Source: Patescibacteria group bacterium
Lineage (GTDB): Bacteria; Patescibacteriota; Patescibacteriia; PEXW01
Length of the DNA: 64,000 nt
Reading direction: 5' to 3'
Assembly (NCBI GenBank): GCA_041671325.1
Contig: JBAZBR010000001.1
Span: 221,332 to 285,331, forward strand
The notes beneath the pieces were generated by a model, which was not told the origin of the DNA, made no database searches, and saw nothing but the letters and a program-made list of their open reading frames with translations. Positions 39,600-59,583 of the stretch are shown here, one piece after another; the first letter of the stretch is position 1; each line of letters begins with the position of its first letter. The translations under genes and the position numbers were made by a program.

Positions 39600-40622
39600 A
39601 TGGCCAAAAGCCTGCCTAAGATCATCTTGCTGTTTGCCGGCGGATCAACTCTTCAAATCGAAGGGGGCGGGGTGATGACTGTAAATTCACCCAAAGATAT
39701 CCAAGCCTGGATGGACCAAGTCCCAGAGCTGGCCCTGATCGCCAAAGTCGAACCGGTTTTTGTCATGCCTGACGGCAAGCATATTGAAATCCCGGACTGG
39801 AATATTTTGGCGCAAAAAGTTTTGCAGTATACCGACGATTATGACGGCTTTGTGATTTTGCAGGGCGTGGACACTATGCTCTACACCAGCGCCTTCTTGT
39901 CGTATGTTTTGAAAGATTTGGCCAAGCCCGTGGTTATCACTGGTTCGCCTTTGACCCCAACTTTGCAAGCGGCCAAGGAAGCGGAAAAAGCCACCATCAA
40001 TTATCGCAATCTGGGAGTGCGCGCCAACCTCATTAATGCTATTCAAGTTTCCACTTTCAAAGTTCCGGAAGTAACCATTGCTTTTGGCAACCAGGTTATC
40101 CGCGCCAACCGGGCCAGGAAATCGCCGAATATTTCTTTTAACATGTTTGACGCGGACGAGCGCGATGTCATGGGCCGTGTGGATTTTGGCATTAAGTTAA
40201 AAAGTGAAAGCGAAAAAACCGTGGAGCCGAAAAAAATCCATCTCACCGAAGTTAAGCCCGCTAACCTGAAAATCCTGACCATCCACCCGACTTTTGAACC
40301 CGAAGAATTGAATGAAGCCATAAAGAATTTGCCTGACGGCATCCTTATCCAAACTTTCATGCAAGAAGGCTGGCCCGAAAGTTTGCAATACCTATTGAAA
40401 GTTGCCAACGACAAGGAAATTCCAGTCGTAGTTTTAAATCCGTATTTTGCCCTGGCTACCAAACTGCCGAACGTGCAAATGGTCTCGGGTATTTCATTGG
40501 AAGCTTTGTACGCTAAATTCCTCTGGGCTCTGTCGAAAGCTCGGAATCCCCAAATTGTCTTGCAATTAATCAGCCAAAATCGCGCTGGGGAGTTTGGGCT
40601 GGAAGAAAAGAAAGCCAAATAG
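39600..40622 (+). CDS. L-asparaginase family protein (type I / GatD-like)
   Basis: ILLFAGGST (the TGGT-like motif region), VILQGVDTMLYTSAFLSY and VVITGS. Confidence 0.65.
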   Translation: MAKSLPKIILLFAGGSTLQIEGGGVMTVNSPKDIQAWMDQVPELALIAKVEPVFVMPDGKHIEIPDWNILAQKVLQYTDDYDGFVILQGVDTMLYTSAFLSYVLKDLAKPVVITGSPLTPTLQAAKEAEKATINYRNLGVRANLINAIQVSTFKVPEVTIAFGNQVIRANRARKSPNISFNMFDADERDVMGRVDFGIKLKSESEKTVEPKKIHLTEVKPANLKILTIHPTFEPEELNEAIKNLPDGILIQTFMQEGWPESLQYLLKVANDKEIPVVVLNPYFALATKLPNVQMVSGISLEALYAKFLWALSKARNPQIVLQLISQNRAGEFGLEEKKAK

Positions 40623-41226
40623 TATGCGCGTCTATTTCTTCCAAGCCCCCAGCGACAAGCCCCGGTTTGAAAATATCCGAATGGAGATTTTGGAAGTTTT
40701 AGACATGAAAAAAGTTTTTTATGTTACTTCTGACGGCAAAAACAGTTTGGATATTCCCGCCGAAGAATTGGAAGCCTTGAACGAAAGCGGGGGATCCATG
40801 CTAGATAAGATGGATGCTTTAGTCATTGAAGGCTCCACGCCAGATGCGGACATTGGCTATTTATTGGCTTATGCCATGAGTTTGCGACGACCAACCTTGT
40901 ATTTGTATGATAAGGATATTTCCAATAAAGGCGTTTTGAAGTTTTTAGGCAATCGCCAAATCCCCGGGCACATCCATGTCAAATCATATTCCGGTGAACA
41001 GGTTAAGGATTTCGTGGACAAATTCATAACGGATTTGCAAGGCGATGAAGCCGAGGAATTGCCTAGCATTAAATTCACCTTACGCATTACCCCGCAAATG
41101 GAGAGGTACTTGCAATGGAAAGCCAAGAAATTCAAGATGACCAAGGCAGATTTCCTGCGGGAAAAAATTTCCGTAGAGCTGATTGAAAAGGATGAGGAAT
41201 ATCAAAAATATTTAAAGAAGAAATGA
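40594..41226 (+). CDS. Hypothetical protein with a nucleoside 2-deoxyribosyltransferase-like core and a C-terminal ribbon-helix-helix-like tail. The likely start is the ATG at 40624 (MRVYFF).
   Basis: ALVIEGSTPDADIGYLLAYAMSLRRPTLYLYD resembles the NDT/YtoQ-fold active region. The C-terminus is TLRITPQMERYLQWKAKKFKMTKADFLREKI. Confidence 0.4.
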   Translation: MGWKKRKPNSMRVYFFQAPSDKPRFENIRMEILEVLDMKKVFYVTSDGKNSLDIPAEELEALNESGGSMLDKMDALVIEGSTPDADIGYLLAYAMSLRRPTLYLYDKDISNKGVLKFLGNRQIPGHIHVKSYSGEQVKDFVDKFITDLQGDEAEELPSIKFTLRITPQMERYLQWKAKKFKMTKADFLREKISVELIEKDEEYQKYLKKK

Positions 41227-41227
41227 T

Positions 41228-42640
41228 ATGATTGAACTATTAAAAATAATTTATTGGTTAGTTGCAATTACGAACTTTATTGTAGCAGTTTTCGTTTTGT
41301 TAAAGGGGATAAAGAAAAAGCCTAACTGGTTATTTTTTCTTTTGGTAATGGCATGTAATGGCTGGTTAATCTCAAATTATTTTTCATATTTCGTCAGAGA
41401 TCTAAATGTTGCTTTAATTGCAGCACGGGTATCTTACTTTTTTGCCTCATTAATAATGCCATTTTTAATTCTTTTTGTTTATAACTTCCCATTCAAGACA
41501 AGTTTTAAGAATAAAAATTATTTCATTATAATTATTCCTGCAATACTTTCTGTGTTTTTATCTTTTGGTCCATGGTTTGTTAAAAGTATTGAGATTAAAG
41601 AAAAAATTAATTTCTATGTTAATGGGAATTTGCATTTATTTTATACTTTATCGATTGGATTATATCTAATCATTTATTGTTACATTTATTTTAAGAAGTT
41701 TAAACAAGCGAATCCGATTGAAAAATCAAAATTAAAATATATTGTAATAGGGTTAATAATTACCGCACTTTTTAGTATTTATTTTGATTTATTATATCCA
41801 TATATTCATAAAATTGAAGCTTGGTCTGGCGGAGTTTATGGTTCACCAACAACAATAATTTTTACTCTATCTGTTGCTTATGCGATTTTACGTTACAGGC
41901 TTTTAGACATACGGATCGTCATTCAAAAAAGCTTTGTGCAATTGATGACTTTTGTGATTTTGTTTGCGATTTATGCTTATGCTCTGATTTTAATTCAGAA
42001 TGTTTCCAGCAAATCCGTGGCTTTAAATAATAATACTGGTTTATTAATTACTATTTTTGTCATTGCTTTAACTATTGAACCTCTCCGCAAATGGATCTAC
42101 AAACTTATTGACGGGATTTTTGAGAATAAGGAAAAACAAAGGCAAGAGGCCTTGCAAAGGGTGCAATTAGTCACTAATTCCACATTGCAATTCCAAACTT
42201 TACTAACCAAGACCCAAGTTGAATTGGAATCTGTTTTCGGGTCAGGAATTGACTTTTACTTGGCAGAAAGAAAGACTGGGAATTTTATCCAATATCCAAA
42301 AGGTGATAAAAAATTGGCTATGGAAAATTCTGTAGGTATGAAAATTTTACCGGGTAATATTCTCATTGCTGATGAATTACCCTATAGGATTGAAAACGGT
42401 GAGACTGCATTAATCCACACCTCGGATTGGTTAAAACAAAACCATTACTCAGCAGTTGTGCCCATTGGCTCAGAAGAGGAAATGGTAGGCATCTTTTGCC
42501 TTCCAATTAGTACCGGCCATCAAAAACCCATTACCGCAGACATGGTTAGGTTTTTGAAGGAATTCCAAACCTCGGTCTTTTTCCCTTTTGCCAGCGCTTA
42601 TGCCTACAAGTTGGCGATTGAGAGAATTGCGCTGAAGTAA
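41228..42640 (+). CDS. 7TM receptor-type sensor domain protein (HisKA_7TM-like) with a cytoplasmic GAF-like C-terminal domain; no output domain
   Basis: Seven predicted TM helices including ILRYRLLDIRIVIQ, then a ~190-aa soluble domain. Confidence 0.45.
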   Translation: MIELLKIIYWLVAITNFIVAVFVLLKGIKKKPNWLFFLLVMACNGWLISNYFSYFVRDLNVALIAARVSYFFASLIMPFLILFVYNFPFKTSFKNKNYFIIIIPAILSVFLSFGPWFVKSIEIKEKINFYVNGNLHLFYTLSIGLYLIIYCYIYFKKFKQANPIEKSKLKYIVIGLIITALFSIYFDLLYPYIHKIEAWSGGVYGSPTTIIFTLSVAYAILRYRLLDIRIVIQKSFVQLMTFVILFAIYAYALILIQNVSSKSVALNNNTGLLITIFVIALTIEPLRKWIYKLIDGIFENKEKQRQEALQRVQLVTNSTLQFQTLLTKTQVELESVFGSGIDFYLAERKTGNFIQYPKGDKKLAMENSVGMKILPGNILIADELPYRIENGETALIHTSDWLKQNHYSAVVPIGSEEEMVGIFCLPISTGHQKPITADMVRFLKEFQTSVFFPFASAYAYKLAIERIALK

Positions 42641-42725
42641 TCTAATGACGTATAAAAATAAACTTGCCAGACTGTTTTAAGCATATTAAGCTGAGAATAA
42701 CTTAGAATATTAACCCCCTAAATAT

Positions 42726-43457
42726 ATGAAAGGAGTAATTTTAGCCGGTGGCACTGGTTCCAGGTTATTCCCTTTAACCAAAGTCACCAATAAGCACTTA
42801 TTACCGGTTTACAACAAACCCATGATTTTTTATCCTTTGCAAACCTTGAAGGACGCAGGAGTAAAAGATATTATGATAATTTCCGGCAAGGGCCATGCTG
42901 GCGGTTTTTTGGAACTTCTGGGTGATGGTCATGATTTTGGCGTACGTTTGTCATATGGCGTGCAAGAGCAACCAGGCGGTATTGCTCAAGCTTTGGGTTT
43001 GGCCGAAGATTTTGCCGATAACCAAAAAATCGTAGTAATTTTGGGTGATAATATTTTAGAAGATAATATTGCCAAAGCCACCAGTGATTTTGAAAATCAG
43101 GAAAAAGGCGGTAAAATATTTTTAAAAGAAGTGGAGAATCCAAAATCTTTTGGCGTAGCAGAAGTCCAGGGTGATAAAATTATCGGCATTGTGGAAAAGC
43201 CTGCCGAACCCAAAAGCAATTTAGCCGTGATCGGGGTGTATATGTATGACGCTGATGTTTTTCAAGTGATTAAAACCTTAAAGCCTTCAGCCAGGGGCGA
43301 ATTGGAAGTTACGGATTTAAATAATTATTATGTCGGAGAGGGAACCATGACTTATGAAATCTTGAAAGGTTCTTGGGGTGATGGCGGAGAGTCATTTGAT
43401 TCATTACTCAAAGCCTCGATTCAGGCTGCAGAGTGGGAAAAACGTAAGCAATTTTAG
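42726..43457 (+). CDS. rmlA: Glucose-1-phosphate thymidylyltransferase-like sugar nucleotidyltransferase (short form)
   Basis: MKGVILAGGTGSRLFPLTKVTNKHLLPVYNKPMIFYPL aligns to the RmlA N-terminus. Confidence 0.7.
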   Translation: MKGVILAGGTGSRLFPLTKVTNKHLLPVYNKPMIFYPLQTLKDAGVKDIMIISGKGHAGGFLELLGDGHDFGVRLSYGVQEQPGGIAQALGLAEDFADNQKIVVILGDNILEDNIAKATSDFENQEKGGKIFLKEVENPKSFGVAEVQGDKIIGIVEKPAEPKSNLAVIGVYMYDADVFQVIKTLKPSARGELEVTDLNNYYVGEGTMTYEILKGSWGDGGESFDSLLKASIQAAEWEKRKQF

Positions 43458-43618
43458 GCAGACAGTTCAAGGCCATTGTTTAATTGACTAAGCCGATTTT
43501 TGGTACGCTAGATTCATAGGCAAAAATAAATTACTAAGTTGACGCGTACTAATATGGTTCTTATACTGTTGATAGAAAAATAACGAATCGTTCTTCTCAT
43601 TTAGGAAGGGGTTGACTA

Positions 43619-43828
43619 ATGGCTTTATTAACACCTGAGCAAGAAGCTGTTTTACGGGCTAAAGTTGCTGAAAGGTTTCCTGGCGATGCGTTGCAAAAAC
43701 TTGCGGCCGATCAATCATTAGCTCCTTGGTGGAATGGAGTTGTAGATCGACTTGATAGCGCTATGCGCACTATTGATATTGACCAACTTGCTTCGTTGGC
43801 CGCAGCTCAAAACAAAATGGTTGATTGA
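43619..43828 (+). CDS. Hypothetical small protein (GC-rich), followed by terminator 43853-43881
   Basis: 69-aa ORF preceded by an AGGAAGGGG SD and followed by ACAGGCGT...ACGCCTGT+T6. Confidence 0.35.
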   Translation: MALLTPEQEAVLRAKVAERFPGDALQKLAADQSLAPWWNGVVDRLDSAMRTIDIDQLASLAAAQNKMVD

Positions 43829-43977
43829 TATCAGTGCATAAGTTCTTACGATACAGGCGTTTTCTTACGCCTGTATTTTTTGTAATAGTTTTGGATCTCT
43901 AAATGAAAATAGGTAAAAGAGTGTTTGCAAAAAACGAATTTTTCTGTTATAATAATACTATAAACAAATTTTTTATT

Positions 43978-45147
43978 ATGAATCTACGCTCTCTTAAGGA
44001 ATTAGCGCTTCAAGGCCAGCAAGTGGTTGTCCGGGTGGATTTTAATGTGCCCATTAAAAACGGTAAGGTCAATGATCCTTCCAGAATAAAAGCAGCTTTG
44101 CCTACTATTAATTACCTTCGGGAACAGCAGTGCCGGATTGTCTTGATTACCCACCTTGGCAAACCCAAAGGCACGCATGACCCGGCTTGCAGTCTGCAGC
44201 CAGTTTTTGATTACTTAGCTGGGATTATGCCCAGCGTAAAGTTTTCTACTTATGTTCCAGGGAGCGACGAGGCTATTAAAAGAAGCCAGGAAGTCAGGCC
44301 GGGAGATGTTTTGTTATTTGATAATTTAAGATTTCATGCCGGTGAAGAAGCCAATGATTTGGAATTTTCAAAAAAACTTGCGGCTCTGGGTGACATTTTT
44401 ATAAACGAAGCTTTTTCAGTTTGTCATCGCAAAGCCGCGTCAGTTTCCACCTTACCCAAGCTTTTGCCCTCGGCTGCGGGTTTTGAACTGCAAAAAGAAG
44501 TTGAGTATTTAAGTAATTTAATGGAAGAGCCTGAACGTCCTTTTATTGGCATTATTGGCGGGGCAAAAATTTCCACCAAGTTACCAGTGATCAGGAATTT
44601 ATTGGAAAAAGTTGATTATCTGTTATTAGGCGGAGCTTTAGCCAACACTATTTTAAAAGCCCAAGGTGTGGCAGTTGGTAAATCCTTGATTGAAGAAAGC
44701 ATGGTGGATGAGGTGAAAGATTTAAGCTTGGTAAATAATAAGCTTCGCGTGCCGATTGACGTGGTTATGGCGCCCAGCATTGAAGCGAATGCCCAATCCC
44801 AGACCGTGGCCGTGGCTAATGTACCGGATGACCAGAGAATTTTGGATATTGGGCCAGAGACTATTGAGCTTTACGACATGATTTTAAAGACGGCCAAGAC
44901 CGTGGTTTGGAACGGACCCATGGGCTATTTTGAATTGCCGCAATTTGAAGTTGGCACAAAACAAATTGCGGAAATCATGTCTAATTTAAATGCCCAGACT
45001 ATTGCCGGGGGCGGTGAAACCTTGGAAGCCATCACGGGCTTGAAATTAAGCGAAAAATTCACTTTTCTTTCCACTGGCGGGGGAGCCATGCTTTCTTATT
45101 TAGAAGGCAAAACTTTACCAGGCATAGAACCGCTAATTAAAATTTAA
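43978..45147 (+). CDS. pgk: Phosphoglycerate kinase
   Basis: VVVRVDFNVP and hinge/ATP-site motifs. The track ORF starts at 43903; the conserved N-terminus begins at the Met at 43978. Confidence 0.9.
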   Translation: MNLRSLKELALQGQQVVVRVDFNVPIKNGKVNDPSRIKAALPTINYLREQQCRIVLITHLGKPKGTHDPACSLQPVFDYLAGIMPSVKFSTYVPGSDEAIKRSQEVRPGDVLLFDNLRFHAGEEANDLEFSKKLAALGDIFINEAFSVCHRKAASVSTLPKLLPSAAGFELQKEVEYLSNLMEEPERPFIGIIGGAKISTKLPVIRNLLEKVDYLLLGGALANTILKAQGVAVGKSLIEESMVDEVKDLSLVNNKLRVPIDVVMAPSIEANAQSQTVAVANVPDDQRILDIGPETIELYDMILKTAKTVVWNGPMGYFELPQFEVGTKQIAEIMSNLNAQTIAGGGETLEAITGLKLSEKFTFLSTGGGAMLSYLEGKTLPGIEPLIKI

Positions 45148-45150
45148 ACC

Positions 45151-46407
45151 ATGCCAAAACTAATTAGTTTAAAAGCGATTGAAATTTTAGATTCACGCGG
45201 TAACCCAACTTTGCAGGTCAAAGCAGATTTTGATGATGGCAGCACTGGTACAGCTGGTGTGCCTTCAGGTGCTTCTACTGGTAGCCATGAAGCTTTGGAA
45301 TTGCGGGACAATGACCAGCGTTTTCATGGTAAAGGCGTCAGGAAAGCTGTTAGTAATGTCAACCAAGAAATCGCCAAAGTTTTAGTGGGTAAGGAAATTA
45401 AAGATTTGAAAAAAATTGATAAAAAACTTTGTACCTTGGATGGTACAAAAAATAAAGCCAGGCTGGGAGCCAACGCCATCTTGGGCGTTTCTTTGGCTAT
45501 GGCCAAAGCTTTGGCCAAAAGCCAAAAACAGCCTTTATATAAATTTTTAATTCAAGAGTATGGATTTAAGCTTGGACAAGTGAAATTTCCCAGGCCAATG
45601 TTCAATGTCATAAATGGCGGCTTGCATGCGGATTCGGGCTTGTCATTTCAGGAATACATGGTCATCCCTAAAACTGGAAATTTTCCAGAAGATGTCAGGT
45701 GCGGAGCAGAAGTTTTTCAAAGTTTAAAAAAATTATTGACAAACAAAAGCCTTTCTACTTTAGTCGGGGACGAAGGCGGTTTCGCGCCGAATTTAAGGTC
45801 TAATGAGGAGCCTTTGCAATTATTAGCTCAAGCCGTGGAACAAGCGGGTTATGAATTAGGCAAGGATGTGGAATTAGGTTTAGATGCGGCGGCAACCCAA
45901 TTACTCAAACCTGAAGGTGCGTACTCCCTGGCTTTGGAAGGCAAGGGCTTAACACCTGAGCAAATGATTGCCTTGTATTTGGAATGGCATAAAAAATACC
46001 ATTTATTTTCAGTTGAAGATGGCTTAGCAGAAGATGATTGGGAAAATTGGCAAGCCCTGACCTCGGGATTAACCAAAGCCAGCATGATGGTAGTCGGTGA
46101 CGATCTTTTTGTGACTAATACAGAAAGATTAAAAATTGGCATTCAAAAGGGCGTTGCTAATTCAATTTTAATTAAAGTTAACCAAATTGGAACTTTGACT
46201 GAAACCATTGAAGCCATAAAATTAGCGCAAAAAAATAATTATCAAGTGGTAGTTTCGCATCGTTCAGGTGAAACCTGTGATAGCACGATTGCGGATTTAG
46301 CCTTGGCAGTAGGCGCAGGCTTTATCAAGTCTGGCTCTTTATCCAGAAGCGAAAGATCCGCAAAATATAACCGTCTGCTGACTATTTGGGAGGAAACCAA
46401 TGGCTAA
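45151..46407 (+). CDS. eno: Enolase
   Basis: AIEILDSRGNPTLQV, SHRSGETCD and other canonical enolase motifs. Confidence 0.95.
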   Translation: MPKLISLKAIEILDSRGNPTLQVKADFDDGSTGTAGVPSGASTGSHEALELRDNDQRFHGKGVRKAVSNVNQEIAKVLVGKEIKDLKKIDKKLCTLDGTKNKARLGANAILGVSLAMAKALAKSQKQPLYKFLIQEYGFKLGQVKFPRPMFNVINGGLHADSGLSFQEYMVIPKTGNFPEDVRCGAEVFQSLKKLLTNKSLSTLVGDEGGFAPNLRSNEEPLQLLAQAVEQAGYELGKDVELGLDAAATQLLKPEGAYSLALEGKGLTPEQMIALYLEWHKKYHLFSVEDGLAEDDWENWQALTSGLTKASMMVVGDDLFVTNTERLKIGIQKGVANSILIKVNQIGTLTETIEAIKLAQKNNYQVVVSHRSGETCDSTIADLALAVGAGFIKSGSLSRSERSAKYNRLLTIWEETNG

Positions 46408-47974
46408 AATAGTTTCGCAAATCAAACCATATTTGCCGGTTGTTTTAGTCGTAATTGACGGTTGGGGAATTGGCAAGCCCGGACCTTGGAACGCCATAAC
46501 CCAAGCAAAGACCCCGAATTATACCTATCTCTTGAAACGCTACCCTAACACAAGCCTTGAAGCTGGCGGGAGGGCGGTTGGTCTTTCTAAAGGCCAAGAT
46601 GGCAATAGCGAAGCCGGGCACATGAACATCGGGGCGGGCCGCGTGGTCTTGCAGGACGAAGTGGAAATTTCACGGGCTATCACGACTGGCGCATTTTTCC
46701 GAAACCCGGCATTCATCCGGGCTATCCGTCATGTCCAGAAGCATAACTCCACTCTTCATCTGATTGGGATGATGGGCAATAACCAAAGTGCCCATGCCAG
46801 TCCCGACCACCTCCTCGCCCTGCTGACCTTTGTCCGACTGATGAGGCTGAAGCATGTAAAATTGCATATTTTTACAGATGGTCGGGACAGCCCGCGTTTT
46901 GCGGCCATCAAGATTTTAAAAATGCTGGAGATGGAGCTAGGGAATACGCGCATTGCTTCGGTTACCGGCCGGTATTATGCCATGGATCGCGCATTGCACT
47001 GGGGGCGCATTAAACAGACATATGACCTACTCACCCTTGGGAGCGGGTTGCGGGCAACCAGCCCAGAAAGCGCAATCCTGGAGGCTTATAACCGGAATGG
47101 AAGTGACGAATTCATTATGCCAACAGCAGTGGTGCCTGAAGGACATCGCCCGAGCGTCGTGAAGGATAATGATTCAATTATCTTCTTTAACTTGCGCAGT
47201 GACCGGGCCCGACAGCTCACCAAGGCTTTCGTACAGCTGGATTTTTCTGGCTTCCGCCGGAAAAAAATTATTAAGAATTTAGTTTTTGTTGCCATGACGG
47301 ACTTTGGGCCAGATTTGCCAGGAGTCCTTTCAGCTTTTCCCAGCCGGGATATTGATGATACATTACCCATGGTTTTAAAAGGCTATAGGCAGTTGTACGT
47401 ATCCGAAAGTGAAAAATATGCGCATATGACCTATTTTTTTAACGGTGGATATGATCACCCCGTGGCAGGTGAAGATCGCGTCTCTATACCTTCACCAAAA
47501 GTGCTGACTTACGATAAACGGCCAGCCATGTCCACGGCAAAAGTCACGCAGTACGTCATTCGCGACCTAAAAAAACAAGCCCACGATTTTATTGCCCTAA
47601 ACTATGCGGCGCCAGATATGGTGGCGCACACCGGGCACATGCACGCGTCGATTAAGGCAGTTGAAGCCGTGGATAAAGGTCTTGGCATATTGGAACGAGC
47701 AGTTCGTAAGGCACATGGTACTCTGATTATCACCGCTGACCATGGTAACATTGAAGAATTGAAAAATATTAGGACTGGCGAAGTTGATACAGAACATTCT
47801 AATACCCCCGTACCTTTTATTTTAGTGAATAAAAATTATAAAAAGTGCAAATTAAGGAAATTTGGGTGTCTGGCCAATATCGCTCCGACCATCCTGGATT
47901 TAATGCAAGTCAGTAAGCCGAAACTGATGATAGGAAAAAGCTTATTAATTAAAAAGCAAAAACATGAATGCTGA
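46400..47974 (+). CDS. gpmI: 2,3-bisphosphoglycerate-independent phosphoglycerate mutase (iPGM), copy 1, GC-rich core
   Basis: VIDGWGIG, GNSEAGHMNIGAGRVV, TADHGN and the phosphatase/transferase domains. GC content of 46480-47750 is clearly elevated. Confidence 0.9.
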   Translation: MAKIVSQIKPYLPVVLVVIDGWGIGKPGPWNAITQAKTPNYTYLLKRYPNTSLEAGGRAVGLSKGQDGNSEAGHMNIGAGRVVLQDEVEISRAITTGAFFRNPAFIRAIRHVQKHNSTLHLIGMMGNNQSAHASPDHLLALLTFVRLMRLKHVKLHIFTDGRDSPRFAAIKILKMLEMELGNTRIASVTGRYYAMDRALHWGRIKQTYDLLTLGSGLRATSPESAILEAYNRNGSDEFIMPTAVVPEGHRPSVVKDNDSIIFFNLRSDRARQLTKAFVQLDFSGFRRKKIIKNLVFVAMTDFGPDLPGVLSAFPSRDIDDTLPMVLKGYRQLYVSESEKYAHMTYFFNGGYDHPVAGEDRVSIPSPKVLTYDKRPAMSTAKVTQYVIRDLKKQAHDFIALNYAAPDMVAHTGHMHASIKAVEAVDKGLGILERAVRKAHGTLIITADHGNIEELKNIRTGEVDTEHSNTPVPFILVNKNYKKCKLRKFGCLANIAPTILDLMQVSKPKLMIGKSLLIKKQKHEC

Positions 47975-49567
47975 ATCATTTGTACCTCGAGTCAGGCCAC
48001 TGGTATTATTAATTTTAGACGGCTGGGGAATTGGCAAGCCTTCCAGAAGCAATCCCTACAGCATTGCTAAATTGCCTAATTATGAAGATTTGATTTTGCA
48101 TTATCCAGCCATAGCCTTGCAGGCTTCCGGTGAGTCCGTAGGTTTACCTTGGGGTGAGATGGGCAATTCTGAAGTCGGCCACGTGAATTGGGTTCGGGAA
48201 AAATCATATACCAAAATCTTCCCAGGATTAACCGGGCAATATCTGACGGCAGTTTTTTCAAAAACCCAGCCTTGTTATCAGCTATCGAAAATACCAAGAA
48301 ACGGAATACCGCCCTGCACCTTATGGGCCTGGTAAGTTCTGGCGGAGTCCACAGTTTTAATGAACATGCTTATGCCTTGATTGAAATGGCCAAGCAACAA
48401 GGCGTGAAAGAACTCTATTTCCATGCTTTTTTGGATGGCCGAGATACGCCGCCAAAAAGCGCGGAAAATTTTATCGGCAAGCTGATAAGCCACATGAAAG
48501 AAGTTGGCTTAGGCAAGATCGCCACCTTAAGCGGCAGATTTTACGCCATGGACCGTGATAATCGCTGGGATAGGGAAGAAAAAGCCTTTAAAGCCTTGGT
48601 CAAGGGTGAAGCGGATAAAAAAGGCCCAGACCCAATTGCTTTAATCCAGCAAAGTTATGCGGTTGGAGTGTATGATGAAGAATTCATCCCAACTGTCATC
48701 ACCAATGAAAAAGGCGAGCCTGTTGGCACTATAAAAGACGGTGATAGTATTATAACTTTTAATTTTCGGCCAGACCGCATGCGGCAAATTACTAAGGTTT
48801 TTACCCTACCAGGTTTTGAAAAATTTGACCGGGGAACGTATTTTAAAGATTTGTTTTTTGTGACCATGACTGAATACGACAAGGACTTGCCGGTTATCGT
48901 GGCTTTTCCGCCAGAAGAAATAAATTACCCGATTGCTAGGGTTATTTCTGATGCGGGTTTAAAGCAAATGCATATAGCCGAAACTGAAAAATACGCGCAT
49001 GTCACTTATTTTTTCAATGGCGGACATGAACAAGCTTATCCCAATGAAGACCATGTGCTCATTCCCAGTCCGCATGTTTCCAGTTATGACCGCAAACCAG
49101 CCATGTCTGTTCGGGAAATCACCGAGAGGTTGGTTAAAGAACTGGCTAAAGGTACCTATGATTTTTATGTCGTTAATTTTGCCAATGCGGATATGGTTGC
49201 CCATACTGGTAATATGCAAGCTACTATTGAGTCTTTAGAAATTTTGGATGAATGTTTAAAACAAGTAGTGGAAGCAGTTTTAGCCATAAATGGCGCTTTA
49301 TATATCACGGCTGACCATGGCAATGCTGAAGAATTAGTAAACATGCAAACCGGCTCGATTGACAAGGAACATTCAACCAGCCCAGTTCCGTTAATCGCCG
49401 TAGCGAATTTTTGGAAAGACACTTCCCCATATATAATCCCAGGCGGCATGTCAGCCCTGAATTCAGCCCAGCCTGTGGGCATTTTGGCAGATGTGACCGT
49501 AACAATCCTGGAAACTTTGGGTTTGCCAGTGCCGGAAGAAATGACGGGCCGAAATTTATTAAATTAA
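47964..49567 (+). pseudogene. gpmI: Second iPGM paralog (native AT-rich composition) interrupted by a +/-1 frameshift near 48186
   Basis: The two overlapping track ORFs 47964-48335 and 48188-49567 together cover a full-length iPGM. The frame changes between GNSEVGHVN and (I/L)GSGKIIYQ. Confidence 0.6.
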
Positions 49568-49573
49568 TTAATT

Positions 49574-51484
49574 ATGCCCGAAGCTGAAAATGCTGCCAGT
49601 ATCCCGCAAACTAAAAGTCATTTAAGGAGGCACTATGGTTTTTTACGCATTTTAATTGCCCTGCCAATTTTTTTTATTGGTGCCTTTTTATTGATTTCAC
49701 AATCTCCAAAACCAAGAATAACTTCACCTTTAGTCAATAATGCCTTGCCTTTGGATGCGTCTTTGGCTATAGATTTTTCATGGCCGGTTTCCCGGAATCT
49801 GGACTTTAAAATTAGCCCGAACGTTGAAGGTGAACTTAGCTTTGAATCAGCTTGGTTTAAAGACCGCATGGTAACTCAGGCAGTTTTTACACCGGATTTT
49901 ACTTGGGATCCCAATGTCAAATATGAAATTACCTTAACAAACGTAAAAAACGCCATTCCCGGCAGGCAAGTCGGCCAAACCCACACTTTAAATTTTTCTA
50001 CCCTGCCAAATCTTAAAATCACTAGCGTACAACCCGCTCAAACCGAAATAATTTCAGCCGATACCAATTGGCAAATAAATTTTGACCGCGCCCAGTCAAA
50101 ATTTGAAGAATATACTTTTCAATTATCGCCGAGCCTAGATTTTTCTGCGGAAAAATTACCAAATAATTCAGGATATGTGATTAGACCTTCGCAATTATTA
50201 GCCCAAGGCCAAAAGTATGCCCTAAAAGCTTTTCAAACTGAAAAAAAGTATGTCTTTAATACCCAAGAAGTGGCCAGCATGTCTGAACAAAATTTGGTAG
50301 TCAATGATGTTTGGCAAGTCAGGCAACCGCCAGGAGTTACAAAAGTTTATCCAACCGGCACTAATATCCCTTTGAATGCTAATTTGGAGATAGATTTTTC
50401 AGAAAGTTTTGCCAAAGAAATTTTATTAGCTAATTTGACTATTGAGCCAGCTTTGGCAGGGAATTGGAGCAGTCAGGATGGTAAAGCTTATATTTTTATT
50501 CCCGAAGAATTAAAATCAGCCACGACTTACACGGTTAAAGTCAAAGCTGGCACTAAGACTTTGGCTGGAGGTTTTTTAGCTGAAGATGTGGTTTACCAAT
50601 TTTCCACCATTGAACCGGTAAAAATTATTTCCAGCACGCCCAAAAATGGTGATAAGGGCATTGCCGTAGGCAGTACTTTGAAATTTACCTTTAACCAGCC
50701 AGTTGACCACAAAAACGCCGAATCGAAATTTAAAATTACCCCGGCTATTTCCGGAGATTTTTCCTGGACAGAAAATACTTTAAATTTCAAACCCAAATCG
50801 CCATTAAATTTTAGTTTAAATTATAGTATTATTTTTGCTTCTGGAATTTTAGCGCCGGCAGGTTTAAATTCAGTAATCCAAGAGGTTATTAATTTTACGA
50901 CCGAAGTTTCGGTTACCCGTTTAGCCGTGCCTTTCCACAGGCAAGAACACAAATTGAGTTGTGAAATTGCCACTTTAGTCATGGCCTTGCGTTATCGGGG
51001 AATTGATATTAGCGAGCAACCCATAATCGACGCGATCGGTTTTGACCCGACCCCGAAAAAGAATGGGGTTTGGGGAAATCCGAATATAGCTTTTGTCGGT
51101 GATATAGACGGCCAACAGCCCGAAACTGGTTATGGGGTTTATTGGGAGCCGATTGCTAAAGCGTCCTTAAAATACCGTAATGCCCGGGCATTTACTAATG
51201 GCAAGTTGACAGACATTACTTCTGAAGTTAAAAAGGGCAATCCCGTGATTGTTTGGGGCACGGCTGGTACTGGCCGGAGGATTGATTGGAAAACCAAAAC
51301 CGGGGAAAACATAATTGCCATAACCGGTGAACATACTCGTATAGTCATTGGCTTTGTTGGGTCAGTGGAAAATCCATCCAAGATAATTACCCTGGACCCG
51401 CTTTATGGTGAAAAGAATTTTACCCAGTCAGCATTTTTATATAACTGGAGTTTGTTAGGTAATAGCGGGGTAGTGGTAGAGTAA
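49574..51484 (+). CDS. Membrane-anchored protein with Ig-like repeats and a C-terminal C39-like (papain-fold) peptidase domain
   Basis: N-terminal TM. Repeated beta-sandwich segments. The C-terminal domain has candidate catalytic Cys in HKLSCEIATLVMAL and His in ITGEHTRIVIGF. Confidence 0.55.
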   Translation: MPEAENAASIPQTKSHLRRHYGFLRILIALPIFFIGAFLLISQSPKPRITSPLVNNALPLDASLAIDFSWPVSRNLDFKISPNVEGELSFESAWFKDRMVTQAVFTPDFTWDPNVKYEITLTNVKNAIPGRQVGQTHTLNFSTLPNLKITSVQPAQTEIISADTNWQINFDRAQSKFEEYTFQLSPSLDFSAEKLPNNSGYVIRPSQLLAQGQKYALKAFQTEKKYVFNTQEVASMSEQNLVVNDVWQVRQPPGVTKVYPTGTNIPLNANLEIDFSESFAKEILLANLTIEPALAGNWSSQDGKAYIFIPEELKSATTYTVKVKAGTKTLAGGFLAEDVVYQFSTIEPVKIISSTPKNGDKGIAVGSTLKFTFNQPVDHKNAESKFKITPAISGDFSWTENTLNFKPKSPLNFSLNYSIIFASGILAPAGLNSVIQEVINFTTEVSVTRLAVPFHRQEHKLSCEIATLVMALRYRGIDISEQPIIDAIGFDPTPKKNGVWGNPNIAFVGDIDGQQPETGYGVYWEPIAKASLKYRNARAFTNGKLTDITSEVKKGNPVIVWGTAGTGRRIDWKTKTGENIIAITGEHTRIVIGFVGSVENPSKIITLDPLYGEKNFTQSAFLYNWSLLGNSGVVVE

Positions 51485-51611
51485 TTCATAAACAATAAAT
51501 TCACTATATAGGAATTTCTTTCTATAGATTTGTCTTTTTCAAATTTAAGCAGTAGGCTATTAAAAAAGCTTTTTTAACAAATAAAAGGGGACAGATTAGG
51601 AGGATTTTAGC

Positions 51612-52478
51612 ATGGTTAACGAAGATATTAAGAAAATTATCGTGGTTTCAGACAGTACTGGGAGTACGGCCAACCGGGTGCTTGGAGCTGTACTGGCTCA
51701 ATATAAAAAGTTGGATATAAGTTTTTGTGTTGAGCATATTTACCGTGAAGTAAGGACACGGAAACAGGTTGACCAAATTTTAGCGACAATCGATGATGAC
51801 TATATGGTGGTCTTCACCATTGTCATTGAAGATTTGCGACATTACTTCCACGACAAGCTTGAAGAAAGGGGGATATTGCACCTGAATGTTTTGGGACCAA
51901 TGCTGCGGACCTGTAAACGTTTTTTAGGCGTCGTTGACCACTATCAACCTGGTTTGACCGTTAAACTTGATGAAGCCTACGACCATCGGGTTAAGGCCGT
52001 GCATTTTGCCCTGGAGCATGATGATGGCAATGGTTTACGCTTGAAAGACGCCGAATTGGTTTTAGTCGGCCCGTCGCGTTGCGGTAAGACCCCGCTTTCC
52101 ATGTACATTGCCAGCGTAGCTGGTTTATGGGTCGGGAATATCCCCATAGTCCCTTTGGAAACCATGAAAGCAGATTTACTGCGCCGCTTAAAGGAAGTGG
52201 ACCCATCGAAAATTGTGGGATTGTTCATTTCTGCGGATGAGTTGTTGAAGCACCGCCAAGAGCGATCTGAAAAATTAGGAATAAACAGTAGTCAAGTTGG
52301 CTTAGGTGTTTATCATGATTTCAGCGCTATTCGGCAGGAAATCATTTTTTGCCGAAGATTGTATAAAAAGCAAGACTGGCCAGTAATCGAAACTACTCGC
52401 CGGGCTTATGAAGAGGTGGCTGTAGAAATCTTGGCTGCCGTGGGCTTTCCTGATATTCGGGCAATCCATCGCACCTAG
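51612..52478 (+). CDS. PpsR-like PEP synthetase / PPDK regulatory protein (bifunctional kinase-pyrophosphorylase, DUF299)
   Basis: IIVVSDSTGSTA near the N-terminus and LVGPSRCGKTPLSMYIA P-loop, the hallmark motifs of PSRP/PDRP. Confidence 0.7.
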   Translation: MVNEDIKKIIVVSDSTGSTANRVLGAVLAQYKKLDISFCVEHIYREVRTRKQVDQILATIDDDYMVVFTIVIEDLRHYFHDKLEERGILHLNVLGPMLRTCKRFLGVVDHYQPGLTVKLDEAYDHRVKAVHFALEHDDGNGLRLKDAELVLVGPSRCGKTPLSMYIASVAGLWVGNIPIVPLETMKADLLRRLKEVDPSKIVGLFISADELLKHRQERSEKLGINSSQVGLGVYHDFSAIRQEIIFCRRLYKKQDWPVIETTRRAYEEVAVEILAAVGFPDIRAIHRT

Positions 52479-52509
52479 CTGTAATCAACTTGTTTTTTTA
52501 TAAGCCTAG

Positions 52510-52545
52510 CTTTCAATTTTGGAGGCTGGGCTTTTTTATTTAATA
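52510..52545. terminator. Bidirectional hairpin terminator between ppsR-like and the convergent 390-aa gene
   Basis: AGCCTAGC...GCTGGGCT stem with T-runs on both sides. Confidence 0.45.
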
Positions 52546-52592
52546 AAAACCCCCACCCTAGAGATGAGAGTTTTTGAAAAGAAAAATTAGCT

Positions 52593-53765
52593 TTATATGC
52601 TAATTTCACGATACTGATGTTGCCGCATGATATGGATGATGCTGTCGTTATCAGAAGGCGTTACCACTAGCATTGAACGGAACTTGCTGGGTATGACAAA
52701 ATTCTTGAGACGGCTGATGTCAAGATAAACGTAGTCATCAGTCGAAGAAAAAATACTGTACGGTTTTGCGGTTGACATTAGTACGCCTTCTTTTACCCAT
52801 GGCCGGTCTGTGGAAACTTCGAAAATCTTCATCACGGGTTCACCTTGGGCATTGCGGGCAAACCGTACAAAAGCCAGCCAATGAATCCATTCACCGATTT
52901 TTTCCCCATTAGCCATGATAAAACCAATTGGGCCATGGTTTTTTTGGAGTTCGGAAAGATACAGGATCCTGGCTGGGCCGCCGGGTTGGGTATGGTGGAC
53001 AAAAGCATCTTTCTGGTCTTTAGCCACAAAGATCATGCAATCGTCAAAATTTTCCCTGTACCCAGCTTTATTGGGCGAGCCAAGGAAAGTGACGAACCGC
53101 TTGCGATCGTCTGCGGTAGCACAGAGTTCACTAGCGGTTAAGAATTCCAACCGCTTGCCGTGCTTGCAAATATGCTCCAAATCAATCGTGTCTAAATGCT
53201 TATCCGTAAAGCGCGGAAGCTTCAAGTTGAAAACACCCGCAGGAGAAGCAACAAAAATTGTTTGGGTTATGTAGTTTAAAATAACCGAAAAAATTATCTC
53301 TCCCTTCCGTACGCAGGTGATTGAAGTCGTCGCCCCGGTAATTGAAGCGGGCGCTTCAAACATTTGATTCCAGATACTAATACTTTTCTCACGACCCATC
53401 AGGATGCCAAGCTTCTGCAGTTCCTGACCCTTAGAGATTTCTTGGATAAATCTTTTTAGAAAACTGGAACGGTCAGTTGGATCGCAAAAGAACATTAATG
53501 GCTGTCTAACTGGATCTGAATCACTCGGCCAACGCCGTTTTGCCGCTTCATCCAATTCTTCGGTTACAAAAATTGCATGATCATCAAAATCGCGAATTCT
53601 TCTGGCTATGCAGATTTCCGGAATTGCGTCTAGGCCAAGAGTGTCGCCTTTGCCATACCGAACCTGTGCCAAGGTTTCTGCGGCAGAGCTTTCAAATAGC
53701 TCACGCCATGCCGTTATCTCGGCGTTAATCGCCACGTCGCAATATTGTTTTTCAATGCCTTGCAT
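52593..53765 (-). CDS. Hypothetical 390-aa protein (GC-rich) with weak IMPase/FBPase-superfamily-like motifs
   Basis: FVTEELDE and FFCDPTDRSSFL loosely resemble the EE and DP(I/L)DG(S/T) metal-binding motifs. Confidence 0.4.
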   Translation of the reverse strand: MQGIEKQYCDVAINAEITAWRELFESSAAETLAQVRYGKGDTLGLDAIPEICIARRIRDFDDHAIFVTEELDEAAKRRWPSDSDPVRQPLMFFCDPTDRSSFLKRFIQEISKGQELQKLGILMGREKSISIWNQMFEAPASITGATTSITCVRKGEIIFSVILNYITQTIFVASPAGVFNLKLPRFTDKHLDTIDLEHICKHGKRLEFLTASELCATADDRKRFVTFLGSPNKAGYRENFDDCMIFVAKDQKDAFVHHTQPGGPARILYLSELQKNHGPIGFIMANGEKIGEWIHWLAFVRFARNAQGEPVMKIFEVSTDRPWVKEGVLMSTAKPYSIFSSTDDYVYLDISRLKNFVIPSKFRSMLVVTPSDNDSIIHIMRQHQYREISI

Positions 53766-53903
53766 ACTTTTCCTCCATTCAAGTTAAGCGTATTTAGTTG
53801 TTAAATTACCTTGTTTATTAACAACATCTTAAGCAAGGTTTTGATTGTAGTCAAGCCATTAAATTACTTTTGAAACGATTATTTATTCAGTCAAATTTTT
53901 TTA

Positions 53904-54959
53904 GTGTATACTTTAAATATGAAGAAAATCACATTTCCAAAAGACGAACTGGTCCATAACACTTTTTTGGAATGGTGGTATTGGAATGGCCAGCTTTGGG
54001 ACGAACAAGGCCGACATTACAGTTACATGAATTGCCTTTTCCGGATCAAGCCAAAAAAGGTGCAATTACCGCTTTTCAAGAGGGTGCCTTTTGAAAATAT
54101 GTATTTTTCCCACTCCTTGCTTTCAGATATTACCCGTAAAAAATTTACAACCCAAATTGACTATTTGGACTTGGTTGCCAAAGACAGTTTTTCCAAACCC
54201 AATTTATTCGTAAACTACGCCAGTCCCATTACCAAAACCGGGTACTTCAATAAAGTTATGGAATTTAAGGATGACCATTATTTTTTAAAGAATGAAAATA
54301 TCGAATTGAATTTAGGTTTAGTTAAAAAACCTTTGTTGGAGAACGGCAATGGTTTTGTTAAATTAAGCACCAAGAAGTCCTATTATTATTCTTTAACTAA
54401 TCTTTCCACCCAAGGCGTAATTAAAATCAATAATCAACTAATTCAAGTTAAGGGTAAATCTTGGATGGATCACCAATGGGCTAATGTAAAATTTACCCGG
54501 GATAAGTGGGATTGGTTTTCCATACAACTTGAAAATAATTCTGAATTAGTCTGTTACCAATATGGCAAGGGTAAAAACAAATCAACTTTAGCCACTATTA
54601 TCCATCCAAATTCCAAGCAGGAATCTACGAAAATAGCCTTTATTAAACCTTGTGGAAAATCTTGGCATAGCTCAAAAACGCACGCAGATTATCCTTTAGA
54701 ATGGCAGATTGAAATTCCTAAATTTAAATTAAAAATTCAAGCTAGGGCATTAAATAACAATCAAGAGGTTATTTTCGGCGTATTGAATTATTGGGAAGGA
54801 CCAATGGAAATAAAAGCCCAAATAGCCGATCGCTCGGTTACGGGTTGGGGATTTACTGAACTGGTTGGTTATGATTCAGTTTTTAATGACCGGACAATGT
54901 TAAAAAATAATCTTAAGGATAGGTTAGTAAACCGTTATAAAAAATTTTTTACATTTTAA
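53904..54959 (+). CDS. AttH/CrtC-like lipocalin-fold protein (hydroxyneurosporene synthase-like family)
   Basis: N-terminal FPKDELVHNTFLEWWYWNGQL resembles the conserved HP..EWWY.TG motif of the AttH/CrtC family. Confidence 0.5.
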   Translation: MYTLNMKKITFPKDELVHNTFLEWWYWNGQLWDEQGRHYSYMNCLFRIKPKKVQLPLFKRVPFENMYFSHSLLSDITRKKFTTQIDYLDLVAKDSFSKPNLFVNYASPITKTGYFNKVMEFKDDHYFLKNENIELNLGLVKKPLLENGNGFVKLSTKKSYYYSLTNLSTQGVIKINNQLIQVKGKSWMDHQWANVKFTRDKWDWFSIQLENNSELVCYQYGKGKNKSTLATIIHPNSKQESTKIAFIKPCGKSWHSSKTHADYPLEWQIEIPKFKLKIQARALNNNQEVIFGVLNYWEGPMEIKAQIADRSVTGWGFTELVGYDSVFNDRTMLKNNLKDRLVNRYKKFFTF

Positions 54960-54970
54960 TTAATAAATAT

Positions 54971-55210
54971 ATGGCGGAAAAACAAGAAGAATTCAAAATT
55001 GATGGTGATAAAATTGTCGCCAAGGTAAAAGAACTTATAAAGGAAGGCAATGCGCGGAAGATTATCATCAAGAATGAAAAAGGGGAGTCAATCATGGAAA
55101 TTCCCGTGACTATTGGTGCGGTTGGCGCTTTGTTAGCCCCCTATTTGTCGGCAGTTGGCGCCCTGGCTGCAATTTTAACAAAGTGTACGATTATTGTCGT
55201 TAAAAAATAA
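54971..55210 (+). CDS. Small DUF4342-like protein
   Basis: 79-aa ORF with a soluble N-terminal half and a hydrophobic C-terminal segment. Confidence 0.4.
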   Translation: MAEKQEEFKIDGDKIVAKVKELIKEGNARKIIIKNEKGESIMEIPVTIGAVGALLAPYLSAVGALAAILTKCTIIVVKK

Positions 55211-55241
55211 TTAAATAGCGAACGATCATTTTGATGGTCCG

Positions 55242-55589
55242 CTATTTTGGAATTCCAGTAAAGAAAGCAATCAGCCATGCACACCAGGCATAAATCGAGT
55301 ATTTATGGAAAAGGTGCGCAGGTTTTCCGCCTTTAAAATATGCCCGCAATGCCCAAATCAAATGCAGGAGCATGATAATTAAAGCGGCATAACCACAGCA
55401 TTTATGAAAGTCAAGCTGATGAGTACGAGCTGACAAACGCATTATAGTTGTCCCGATCAAATCATCAGCAAAGCCCAAGCAAAAAATAATTATCATCCAG
55501 CGCTCAAGGTGGTGCTTGATTTTCTCTGACCAGATTGCCGTGGTATAGAACATTAAGGCCAAAATCATGAAAAGAACTGCCCAAAACAT
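55242..55589 (-). CDS. Hypothetical integral membrane protein (4 TM)
   Basis: 115-aa hydrophobic ORF. Confidence 0.45.
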   Translation of the reverse strand: MFWAVLFMILALMFYTTAIWSEKIKHHLERWMIIIFCLGFADDLIGTTIMRLSARTHQLDFHKCCGYAALIIMLLHLIWALRAYFKGGKPAHLFHKYSIYAWCAWLIAFFTGIPK

Positions 55590-55666
55590 TTTGTCCTCCT
55601 TGGTTTTGAATTAATTTACACCCCAGCAATAGAATGTCAAATATTTAATAGAGCATACTTCAATTT

Positions 55667-56371
55667 ATGGGCACTTACCAAGAATTTATTTTAGACTATA
55701 AAAAATTAGACAATCCAAAACAAGCCAATATTTTGCGAGGGTTTTTCAAAACGGGTAAAGGCGAATATGGAGAAGGTGATGTATTTTTGGGCATAAAAGT
55801 CCCGGTACAAAGATCGGCAGTCAAAAAATATTACGATTTGCCAATTAATGATGTCATTAGAATTTTAACAAACAAGATTCATGAGTATCGTTTATCGGCA
55901 TTGTTTATATTGGTGCATAAGTTTCAAAAAGGGGATGATGCTTTAAAAAATCAAATCTTCAATTTATACCTTAAAAATACCAAGTTCATTAATAACTGGG
56001 ATTTGGTGGATTTATCTGCGCCAAATATAGTCGGTAATTATTTATTGGATAAACCCCGAACAATTTTATATGAGCTGGCTAAATCCAAGAATCTCTGGGA
56101 AAGACGGATTTCAGTGTTAAGCACATTTACTTTTATACGCCAAAATGATTTTAAAGATACCTTACGAATCAGCGGAATATTATTAAATGATAAACACGAT
56201 TTAATCCATAAAGCCGTGGGATGGATGTTAAGGGAAATCGGCAAAAGAAACAAAAAAATAGAAGAAAATTTTTTAAAGAAATATTATCGCCAAATGCCCA
56301 GAACAATGTTAAGATACGCAATAGAAAGGTTTCCTAAAGCTAAGCAACAAAAATATTTAAAGAAAGATTAG
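55667..56371 (+). CDS. DNA alkylation repair enzyme (AlkC/AlkD HEAT-like repeat DNA glycosylase family)
   Basis: NNWDLVD, LWERRISV and KAVGWMLREIGK motifs characteristic of AlkD. Confidence 0.75.
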   Translation: MGTYQEFILDYKKLDNPKQANILRGFFKTGKGEYGEGDVFLGIKVPVQRSAVKKYYDLPINDVIRILTNKIHEYRLSALFILVHKFQKGDDALKNQIFNLYLKNTKFINNWDLVDLSAPNIVGNYLLDKPRTILYELAKSKNLWERRISVLSTFTFIRQNDFKDTLRISGILLNDKHDLIHKAVGWMLREIGKRNKKIEENFLKKYYRQMPRTMLRYAIERFPKAKQQKYLKKD

Positions 56372-56375
56372 ATGT

Positions 56376-56621
56376 ATGGCAAAATCTTGGTTCAGGAAAA
56401 GAAAAGGCTTGAAAAGTCCAGATAAAGGCTGGGGCTTTGTACCTATAAGTTTTGAAGGCGTGACCATGTATTTGATTCTGCTGGCTTTAGCTATATTTTT
56501 GGTCATTCATTTTCAAATATGGCAGGCAACGGTTACCCAGGGTTTGAGTTTTGGGTTATTATTTATTTTTATTCTGATTATTTTTGCTTTTCTGGCCAGA
56601 ATGCGGACATTAAAAGATTGA
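56376..56621 (+). CDS. Small membrane protein (hypothetical)
   Basis: 81 aa with two hydrophobic helices. Confidence 0.35.
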   Translation: MAKSWFRKRKGLKSPDKGWGFVPISFEGVTMYLILLALAIFLVIHFQIWQATVTQGLSFGLLFIFILIIFAFLARMRTLKD

Positions 56622-56689
56622 ATTTGATAACAGTGAATTTTATCGGTACAAAAGAAAAACGACCCCAAAATACAGGGGTCGTTCAGGCA

Positions 56690-56950: not shown

Positions 56951-57097
56951 TAACCTCTCCTTACTTAAGATTTAACTTCATTCTAATCGTAAGACCTTAT
57001 AATAAATCAGTTTTAGTGTCAAGAATAATTTAACATTGACTTTTTCCCAACAAAGATCTAAAATAATTAGACTCAATTTAAATCACCATAAATTTTT

Positions 57098-58384: not shown

Positions 58385-58394
58385 ATTAAAAAAT

Positions 58395-59579: not shown

Positions 59580-59583
59580 AATC

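Follow-up and report, generated by a model that had tools for sequence, protein, structure and literature searches.

Mosaic genes produced by homologous recombination between lineages are exemplified by the penicillin-binding-protein (PBP) genes of Streptococcus pneumoniae and Neisseria. For the Candidate Phyla Radiation (CPR), or Patescibacteria, the consulted parts of one study (PMC7304191) treat central glycolysis as mostly vertically inherited and report evidence of loss and transfer for the steps from glycerate-3P to pyruvate; in those same parts, phosphoglycerate mutase (PGM) is discussed only as patchy and as archaeal-type PGM, and tandem paralogs of the independent-type enzyme (iPGM, encoded by gpmI) are not mentioned. 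Nor did the literature searched yield an account of such tandems in CPR/Patescibacteria or any enzymology of either of the two Patescibacteria iPGM families considered here. Both families are represented in a 64,000-nucleotide stretch of a Patescibacteria metagenome-assembled genome (MAG) (assembly GCA_041671325.1, contig JBAZBR010000001.1, positions 221,332 to 285,331; hereafter the window, GC 41.1%), where two adjacent gpmI genes, C1 and C2, follow pgk and eno in a block of lower-glycolysis genes. A first-pass annotation, made from the letters alone, had described them as adjacent full-length iPGM homologs of which the first is intact, and this is the case. It had also offered two explanations for the pair, the inactivation of a native gene after acquisition of a foreign homolog or the recombinational patching of a gene, and the evidence presented below upholds the second and contradicts the first: the ancestry of the C1 core is shared neither by the ends of the gene nor by any of the neighbours tested, both paralogs have long resided at the locus, and other assemblies of this strain lack the frameshift that splits C2. 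An old tandem, a replaced C1 core and an apparently unlinked, assembly-private frameshift in C2 make up an account that we consider probable as a whole.

Five close relatives share the gene order ntp-pgk-eno-C1-C2-Big5, forming a low-GC clade A (L083 and L085, GC 0.42–0.43) and a GC-rich clade B (L003, L004 and L086, GC 0.56–0.58); also belonging to the latter is L171 (GC 0.61), a short contig with a partial eno, C1 and C2 only. Among the eight genes compared, C1 alone places the window nearer to clade B, with 70–71% protein identity to clade A and 80–83% to clade B. All the others put it nearer to clade A, the corresponding values being 87–94% and 79% for ntp, 81–82% and 62–67% for pgk, 72–78% and 64–66% for eno, 82–84% and 77–78% for C2, 64% and 45–47% for Big5, 85% and 72–75% for FtsX, and 87% and 80–81% for ABC. 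At the DNA level, the best identity of C1 is 72–76% to clade B versus 68–69% to clade A. The same reversal is found at informative amino-acid sites, defined as those where the members of clade A agree, the members of clade B agree and the two clades differ. Here the window sides with A over B at ratios of 27:1 in ntp, 39:1 in pgk, 17:2 in eno, 18:2 in C2 and 25:1 in Big5, and at 9:31 in C1 (9 A and 31 B versus 126 A and 7 B in the flanks; Fisher's exact p = 1.3e-19). In a neighbour-joining (NJ) tree of C1 residues 25–460, which included 19 other members of the C1 clade and four outgroups, the window groups with clade B at 91% bootstrap and clade A is recovered without the window at 100%, with several other clades (P0010-12, P0015-16 and P0017-18) lying between the two; in the NJ tree of C2, the window joins clade A at 100%.

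The signal changes along C1 itself. Residue 19 (I19) is A-type, 19 of the 20 informative sites between residues 54 and 252 and all eight between 334 and 390 are B-type, and residues 468, 475 and 519 are all A-type (3/3); moreover, the C-terminal length is that of clade A, clade B carrying a three-residue gap. At codon positions 1 and 2, residues 26–450 contain 9 A and 62 B sites and residues 451–525 contain 5 A and 2 B, while the nucleotide informative sites of residues 1–25 are 3 A and 0 B. Taken together, the two ends (7 A and 2 B at codon positions 1 and 2) differ from the core with a Fisher p of 1e-4, for boundaries that were picked post hoc, and a two-breakpoint maximum chi-square on amino-acid sites reached the observed value in 28 of 3000 permutations. 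The junctions map to 46457–46495 on the 5′ side and 47776–47803 on the 3′ side, both where the coding sequence of the gene is most conserved (DGWGIGKPGPW and ADHGNIEELKN...EVDTEHSN.PVPFI, respectively), and GC drops at both ends of C1.

Base composition follows the same outline. Residues 25–462 of C1 have a GC content of 0.498 and a third-position GC content (GC3) of 0.523, compared with a GC3 of 0.409 +/- 0.071 over the 49 open reading frames (ORFs) analysed, C1 included; the ends are AT-rich, as had been described, with GC 0.375 in the first 24 codons and 0.339 in the last 59 (residues 466–524). Of all 1.3-kb stretches in the window, the one starting at 46451 has the highest GC (0.502), and those near 3200 and 19050 reach 0.497. 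C2 has the host-like composition attributed to it (GC 0.43–0.46, GC3 0.42). GC at the first and second codon positions (GC1 and GC2) is also somewhat raised in C1, and part of the AT-richness of the tail is caused by a Lys-rich C-terminus. By itself, the composition of C1 is weak evidence that proves nothing; the ancestry signal is what decides. Other ORFs of the window that rival or surpass the C1 core in GC3 or GC are those at 39600–40622 (asparaginase-like, GC3 0.56), 40594–41226 (GC3 0.51), 12115–13326 (GC3 0.525) and 19411–20355 (GC 0.51), as well as the ORF at 5–1777. Outside the window, the ntp-pgk-eno-C1-C2-Big5 block of the clade A relative L083 (6769–15086; JGI 3300007354, Ga0104761_1000285) has GC 0.49–0.52 and GC3 0.53–0.63 within a 21.6-kb locus of mean GC 0.424, a contrast which implies flanks far richer in AT and which could stem from regional heterogeneity or from a further transfer.

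Several observations weigh against a replaced core. Its GC3 deviates from that of the 48 other ORFs by a z of only 1.6, and two of the 48 equal or exceed it; the first-pass annotation was thus right about the direction of the difference (0.498 versus 0.411 for the window) but not in placing the core far above the genome background. Residues ~276–350 have host-like GC3 (0.38–0.40) and third codon positions that lean towards clade A, such that the mosaic may be patchy, with more than one patch, or these residues may be too conserved to call. In a tree of full-length C1, the window joins clade B at only 50%, the value of 91% being obtained after trimming to residues 25–460, and all the trees are NJ with a simple distance correction rather than maximum likelihood. 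The 5′ junction depends on very few sites, and, no close donor having been sampled, the direction and timing assigned to the transfer come from tree position only.

That said, the ancestry of the C1 core is that of an intragenic orthologous replacement from a clade-B-like, GC-rich relative. As to mechanism, we infer that ~1.3 kb of a resident C1 (residues ~26 to ~463) would have been exchanged for the orthologous sequence of clade B through DNA uptake followed by homology-facilitated recombination, with short runs of identity in the conserved motifs possibly anchoring the exchange between otherwise divergent sequences. Because the GC3 of the tract (0.52) is intermediate between that of the host (0.41) and that of clade B (0.69–0.78), and because the nearest C1 to that of the window is only 83% identical at the amino-acid and 76% at the nucleotide level, either the replacement happened long ago and has been partly ameliorated or its donor belongs to an unsampled lineage. 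A metagenome scan with the intact C2 returned, among the matches listed, a best locus of 61% identity and neither a further copy of the strain nor a closer clade A relative or donor; a viral-contig scan with C1 found no relative and gave no support for carriage by phages.

Could the pattern have arisen with no transfer at all, the GC-richer core reflecting constraints intrinsic to the gene (amino acids, or codons linked to expression) and the tree conflict a faster evolution of C1 in clade A? The modest size of the compositional deviation, the raised GC1 and GC2 and the contribution of the Lys-rich C-terminus to the AT-rich tail would all suit this explanation, which is nevertheless very improbable, as it leaves unaccounted for the position of the window beside clade B with several clades separating it from clade A, the change of signal partway along C1, and the lack of excess GC over neighbouring genes in the clade A ortholog of L085. 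Acceleration in clade A, in particular, cannot explain why C1 of the window is 79–81% identical to clade B but L083 and L085 are only 74% identical to each other. Nor is an assembly chimera, with clade-B-like reads joined to the native gene at conserved motifs, anything but extremely unlikely: both junctions do lie in motif-coding stretches, at which an assembler may pass from one genome to a related one, but an identical mosaic is present in Logan contigs from two separate Sequence Read Archive (SRA) runs (SRR6484324 and SRR18595301), built with a different assembler, as well as in two MAG contigs. Furthermore, the nucleotide identity between clades is only ~68–76%, so that long shared k-mers are lacking, and the GC of the core (0.50) matches none of the sampled clade B genomes (0.56–0.61). 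Hidden paralogy, that is, two ancestral C1 types followed by differential loss, was also considered and rejected, there being a single C1 per locus and a signal that switches inside the gene.

Besides its mosaic structure, C1 belongs to a pair that is widely distributed. In a census that took a single genome for each GTDB species and then applied tblastn, 43 of the 48 loci with sufficient downstream sequence carry C1 and then C2 on the same strand, separated by a median gap of 29 nt, and these tandem loci come from Kerfeld-, Falkow-, Magasanik-, Uhr-, Doudna-, Buchanan- and Parcubacteria. The placement of both copies in an iPGM phylogeny, proposed in the first-pass annotation as a check, revealed no copy of recent foreign arrival: in 98% of the bootstraps of an NJ tree, a split unites all the tandem C1 genes without any tandem C2 or non-Patescibacteria gene, and single-copy Patescibacteria as well as non-Patescibacteria genes fall on the C2 side. 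Judging from these trees and gene orders, C1 and C2 derive from an ancient duplication, with a tandem arrangement that dates back to the ancestor of much of the Patescibacteria, and with C2 classed by its sequence as a canonical-type iPGM and C1 as an old, monophyletic and Patescibacteria-specific paralog. The tandem is found across many lineages, and therefore neither gene is a recent foreign arrival.

In some lineages, the C2 partner is lost or strongly diverged. Five loci (L005, L036, L048, L049 and L051) have a C1-type gene followed by 5 kb or more of sequence with no adjacent C2, an observation that concerns adjacency only. At L018 (6243–7214 of CAYVIA010000050.1), the gene after C1 is a truncated C2 that retains only iPGM residues ~211–533, and at L045 (8154–9707 of JAGXOH010000006.1, Falkowbacteria) the second copy is full length and only 30–35% identical to either copy of the window. 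A number of records with a Patescibacteria-type tandem or C1-type gene bear other names, namely L007-L009, L012, L013 and others, titled 'uncultured Gammaproteobacteria', L005, titled 'Pacearchaeota', and L065, titled 'Woesearchaeota'; these Gammaproteobacteria and DPANN titles look like taxonomic labelling problems.

The two proteins share 41% identity and both score above the curated cutoff (330.65 bits) of TIGR01307, the iPGM equivalog model, over their full length (557.2 bits for C1 and 615.3 bits for P0241, an intact C2 allele). Pfam recognizes a Metalloenzyme domain (PF01676) with an inserted iPGM_N domain (PF06415) in both genes, as annotated on the identical Logan loci, and in all homologs. 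Named homologs of both proteins are all from Patescibacteria; the C1 matches are 54–100% identical to C1 and 39–46% to C2, and the C2 matches show the reverse pattern. Aligned to the iPGM structure of PDB 1EJJ over ~505–520 residues, C2 scores 523 bits versus 415 for C1, and sixteen 1EJJ residues are identical in both: D12, S62, H66, H123, R153, D154, R185, R191, R261, R264, K336, D403, H407, D444, H445 and H462. Among these, we take Ser62 to be catalytic, D12, D403, H407, D444, H445 and H462 to be the Mn ligands, and H123, R153, D154, R185, R191, R261, R264 and K336 to bind the substrate. Their counterparts in C1 (D20, S70, H74, H132, R162, D163, R191, R197, R266, R269, K339, D406, H410, D447, H448 and H466) are invariant in 24 members of the C1 family, which is otherwise marked by a GNSEAGH signature, by QSAH.SPDH in place of GGVHSH and by RSDR in place of RPDR. 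Because C1 keeps every catalytic and metal-binding residue, both enzymes probably interconvert 3-phosphoglycerate and 2-phosphoglycerate.

A more far-reaching proposal, which we regard as unlikely, is that C1 has a role distinct from that of canonical C2 and that the replacement of its core by clade B sequence was adaptive. C1 might then differ in metal or regulatory behaviour, or in a direction of flux tied to nucleotide salvage or to a lower glycolysis fed by RuBisCO, and the translationally coupled C1-C2 pair would have been retained through most of the history of the phylum. If this were true, ultra-small and putatively competent bacteria would be swapping pieces of core-metabolism genes across ~70% nucleotide identity.

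The split of C2 reported in the first-pass annotation, GNSEVGHVN in one frame and LGSGKIIYQ in the next, is indeed present in the window. Frame 0 reads ...GNSEVGHVN and then nonsense, the following frame resumes with LGSGKIIYQ..., and the lesion, which lies just after the catalytic-serine motif GNSEVGH, consists of one missing T: the window reads AATTGGG (TT, 48188–48189), other assemblies of the same strain AATTTGGG (TTT). An exact-protein look-up of C1 retrieved Logan contigs from SRR6484324 and SRR18595301, both with an intact C2 of 534 residues. Against the former, the window shows no mismatches and one gap over 40400–53973 and is 100% identical over 49584–64000, so that the missing T is the sole difference across 23.6 kb (40400–64000); against the latter, there are no mismatches and the same single gap over 42394–51319, and 57811–64000 is also identical. 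At the protein level, an intact 534-residue C2 (NCBI MFA6587643.1) is encoded on a 618,411-bp MAG contig, whereas a 494,396-bp contig, presumably that of the window, has truncated products of 442 residues (MFA6953207.1, NCBI) and 414 residues (JGI); the intact form is on record in NCBI, JGI, ENA and Logan. Exact look-ups of the 123-residue N-terminal fragment and of the 442- and 414-residue products retrieved nothing, and neither did those of two other ORFs of the window (36375–39353 and 13327–15579), in this case probably owing to different start codons in the gene calls; the comparison with other assemblies covers 40400–64000. Since neither the two Logan contigs nor the 618-kb contig has the lesion, it is private to one assembly. 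Apart from the missing base, C2 is identical to the intact allele, keeps all its catalytic residues and has no further lesion, and the C2 genes of relatives read GH(V/I)NLGSGK in frame, the nearest of them at 83–84% protein identity with saturated synonymous sites. C2 is therefore not a decaying pseudogene, whether the lesion is an error or a very young allele, and this lesion has no evident link with the replacement of the C1 core. The shared strain occurs in SRR6484324 (L001/L088) and SRR18595301 (L002/L089), which have distant accession numbers; no substitution separates the window from the former in 23.6 kb or from the latter in 15 kb, and either the population is remarkably clonal or one site was sampled repeatedly.

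With regard to the origin of the missing T, a consensus or assembly error, or else the call of a minor allele, is somewhat likelier, because the only difference is a homopolymer indel and not a substitution, in a strongly conserved gene. There is still a substantial chance, though one short of even, that the population of the 494-kb MAG does carry the frameshift, as a loss-of-function allele of very recent origin that is tolerated through the activity of C1. Such an allele would be in keeping with the presence of truncated products in both the NCBI and the JGI records, and two further facts speak for it and against an artefact: the window is otherwise free of errors over the 23.6 kb compared with an independent assembly, and 5 of 48 lineages have no C2 at the tandem position while L018 has a truncated one, such that real loss of C2 is tolerated in some lineages. 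Set against it are the nature of the change, unique in 23.6 kb, the intact gene seen as DNA in two Logan contigs and as protein on the 618-kb contig, and the strong conservation of C2 across the phylum. The lineages without an adjacent or complete C2 could also be cited, together with the frameshift itself and the highest 1.3-kb GC of the window falling in C1, in favour of the first of the two histories offered in the first-pass annotation, in which C1 is a recently acquired foreign iPGM and native C2 is redundant and decaying; this we judge to be most improbable. It is contradicted by the conserved synteny of a tandem ancestral in many Patescibacteria lineages and already present, in identical order, in the clade A relatives with host-like GC; by the C1 core being the only foreign part, lodged in a pre-existing C1; and by a C2 that has no second lesion and, in the other same-strain assemblies, an unbroken frame. 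Programmed ribosomal frameshifting at 48188 is suggested solely by the fact that the overlapping frames jointly encode a complete iPGM; with no slippery heptamer at GTG AAT TGG GTT, and with an uninterrupted frame both in all relatives and in the strain elsewhere, its probability is negligible. We accordingly retain an assembly-level or minor-allele origin as the favoured explanation for the break in C2.

The five genes of the block occupy 43903–51484 consecutively (Table 1), with overlapping stop and start codons: 8 nt are shared by eno and C1 and 11 nt by C1 and C2. The longest pgk ORF, which is also the Logan call, encodes 414 residues; since orthologs are shorter (384–390 residues) by ~24 residues, translation probably begins at the ATG of 43978 (MNLRSLKEL...). 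Orthologs of the downstream Big_5/Peptidase_C39_2 protein (L083, L085, L086 and L003) are syntenic in all close relatives and evolve far faster than the glycolytic genes.

Table 1. Coordinates, in the window, of the genes and C1/C2 segments discussed in the text
Feature	Position	Strand	Remarks
pgk (phosphoglycerate kinase)	43903..45147	+	ORF; heads the conserved block; PGK domain (Pfam) in the identical Logan gene
eno (enolase)	45151..46407	+	ORF
gpmI C1	46400..47974	+	524 residues, intact, mosaic; divergent Patescibacteria-specific iPGM family
C1 5′ segment	46400..46457	+	Clade-A-like, AT-rich, ~19–25 codons; informative sites and composition (weak support, short)
C1 replaced tract	46475..47790	+	Clade-B-like, ~1.3 kb, residues ~26 to ~463; informative sites, NJ tree and composition
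C1 3′ tail	47800..47974	+	Clade-A-like, AT-rich, ~55 codons; informative sites, C-terminal length and composition
gpmI C2	47964..49567	+	Canonical-type iPGM, 534 residues if intact; here split into frame 0 (47964–48335) and the next frame (48188–49567)
C2 frameshift lesion	48188..48189	+	T-run of 2; T-run of 3 in other same-strain assemblies
Big_5/Peptidase_C39_2 protein	49574..51484	+	636 residues; downstream neighbour, syntenic in clades A and B

In summary, C1 represents a well-delimited case in which the interior of a core glycolytic gene was replaced by orthologous sequence from a lineage with a very different GC content, and as such bears on how far recombination shapes Patescibacteria genomes. 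The conserved pair of iPGM genes in highly reduced genomes is apparently undescribed, and raises the question of why such genomes retain two copies. The apparent C2 'pseudogene', for its part, offers no basis for inferring a loss of metabolism in this MAG, because a single base separates it from the intact gene of the same strain.

Viewed against known systems, the locus is a new example of known events: an inter-lineage mosaic gene, ancient tandem paralogs and a probable MAG indel. Both copies resemble described iPGMs (GpmI/GpmM, TIGR01307, and the 1EJJ enzyme of Geobacillus stearothermophilus) in their end-to-end match, domains and key residues, and the pgk/eno neighbourhood fits a glycolytic role; they differ in forming a tandem pair instead of a single gene, with C1 being divergent and lineage-specific. 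The break in C2 is like a single-base assembly indel in a MAG, where a 1-nt homopolymer change splits an otherwise perfect ORF. Unlike an established frameshift pseudogene, in which a disabling mutation is shared among conspecifics and accompanied by additional lesions or lost conserved residues, C2 has its lesion only on the 494-kb contig, shows no secondary damage and is intact in the otherwise identical DNA of other samples. C1 displays most of the marks of a recombinant gene, including phylogenetic conflict, internal breakpoints with native-type ends (more weakly at the 5′ end) and a modest shift in composition; a near-identical donor is missing, the best candidate remaining at 83% amino-acid and 76% nucleotide identity. 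As in the mosaic PBP genes, part of the interior of a resident gene was swapped for the orthologous block of a related but distinct lineage while the native ends and neighbours were kept, with a phylogenetic conflict and a compositional step as the visible trace. Unlike in those genes, donor and recipient are far more divergent (~68–76% nucleotide identity today), there is no known selective agent, the event is not recent or its donor is unsampled, and the host is an uncultivated member of the Patescibacteria. Finally, as in the displacement of glycolytic genes in CPR, to the extent covered by the consulted parts of PMC7304191, the history of a glycolytic gene differs from that of the organism; what sets C1 apart is that the displacement is partial, being intragenic, and took place within the Patescibacteria.

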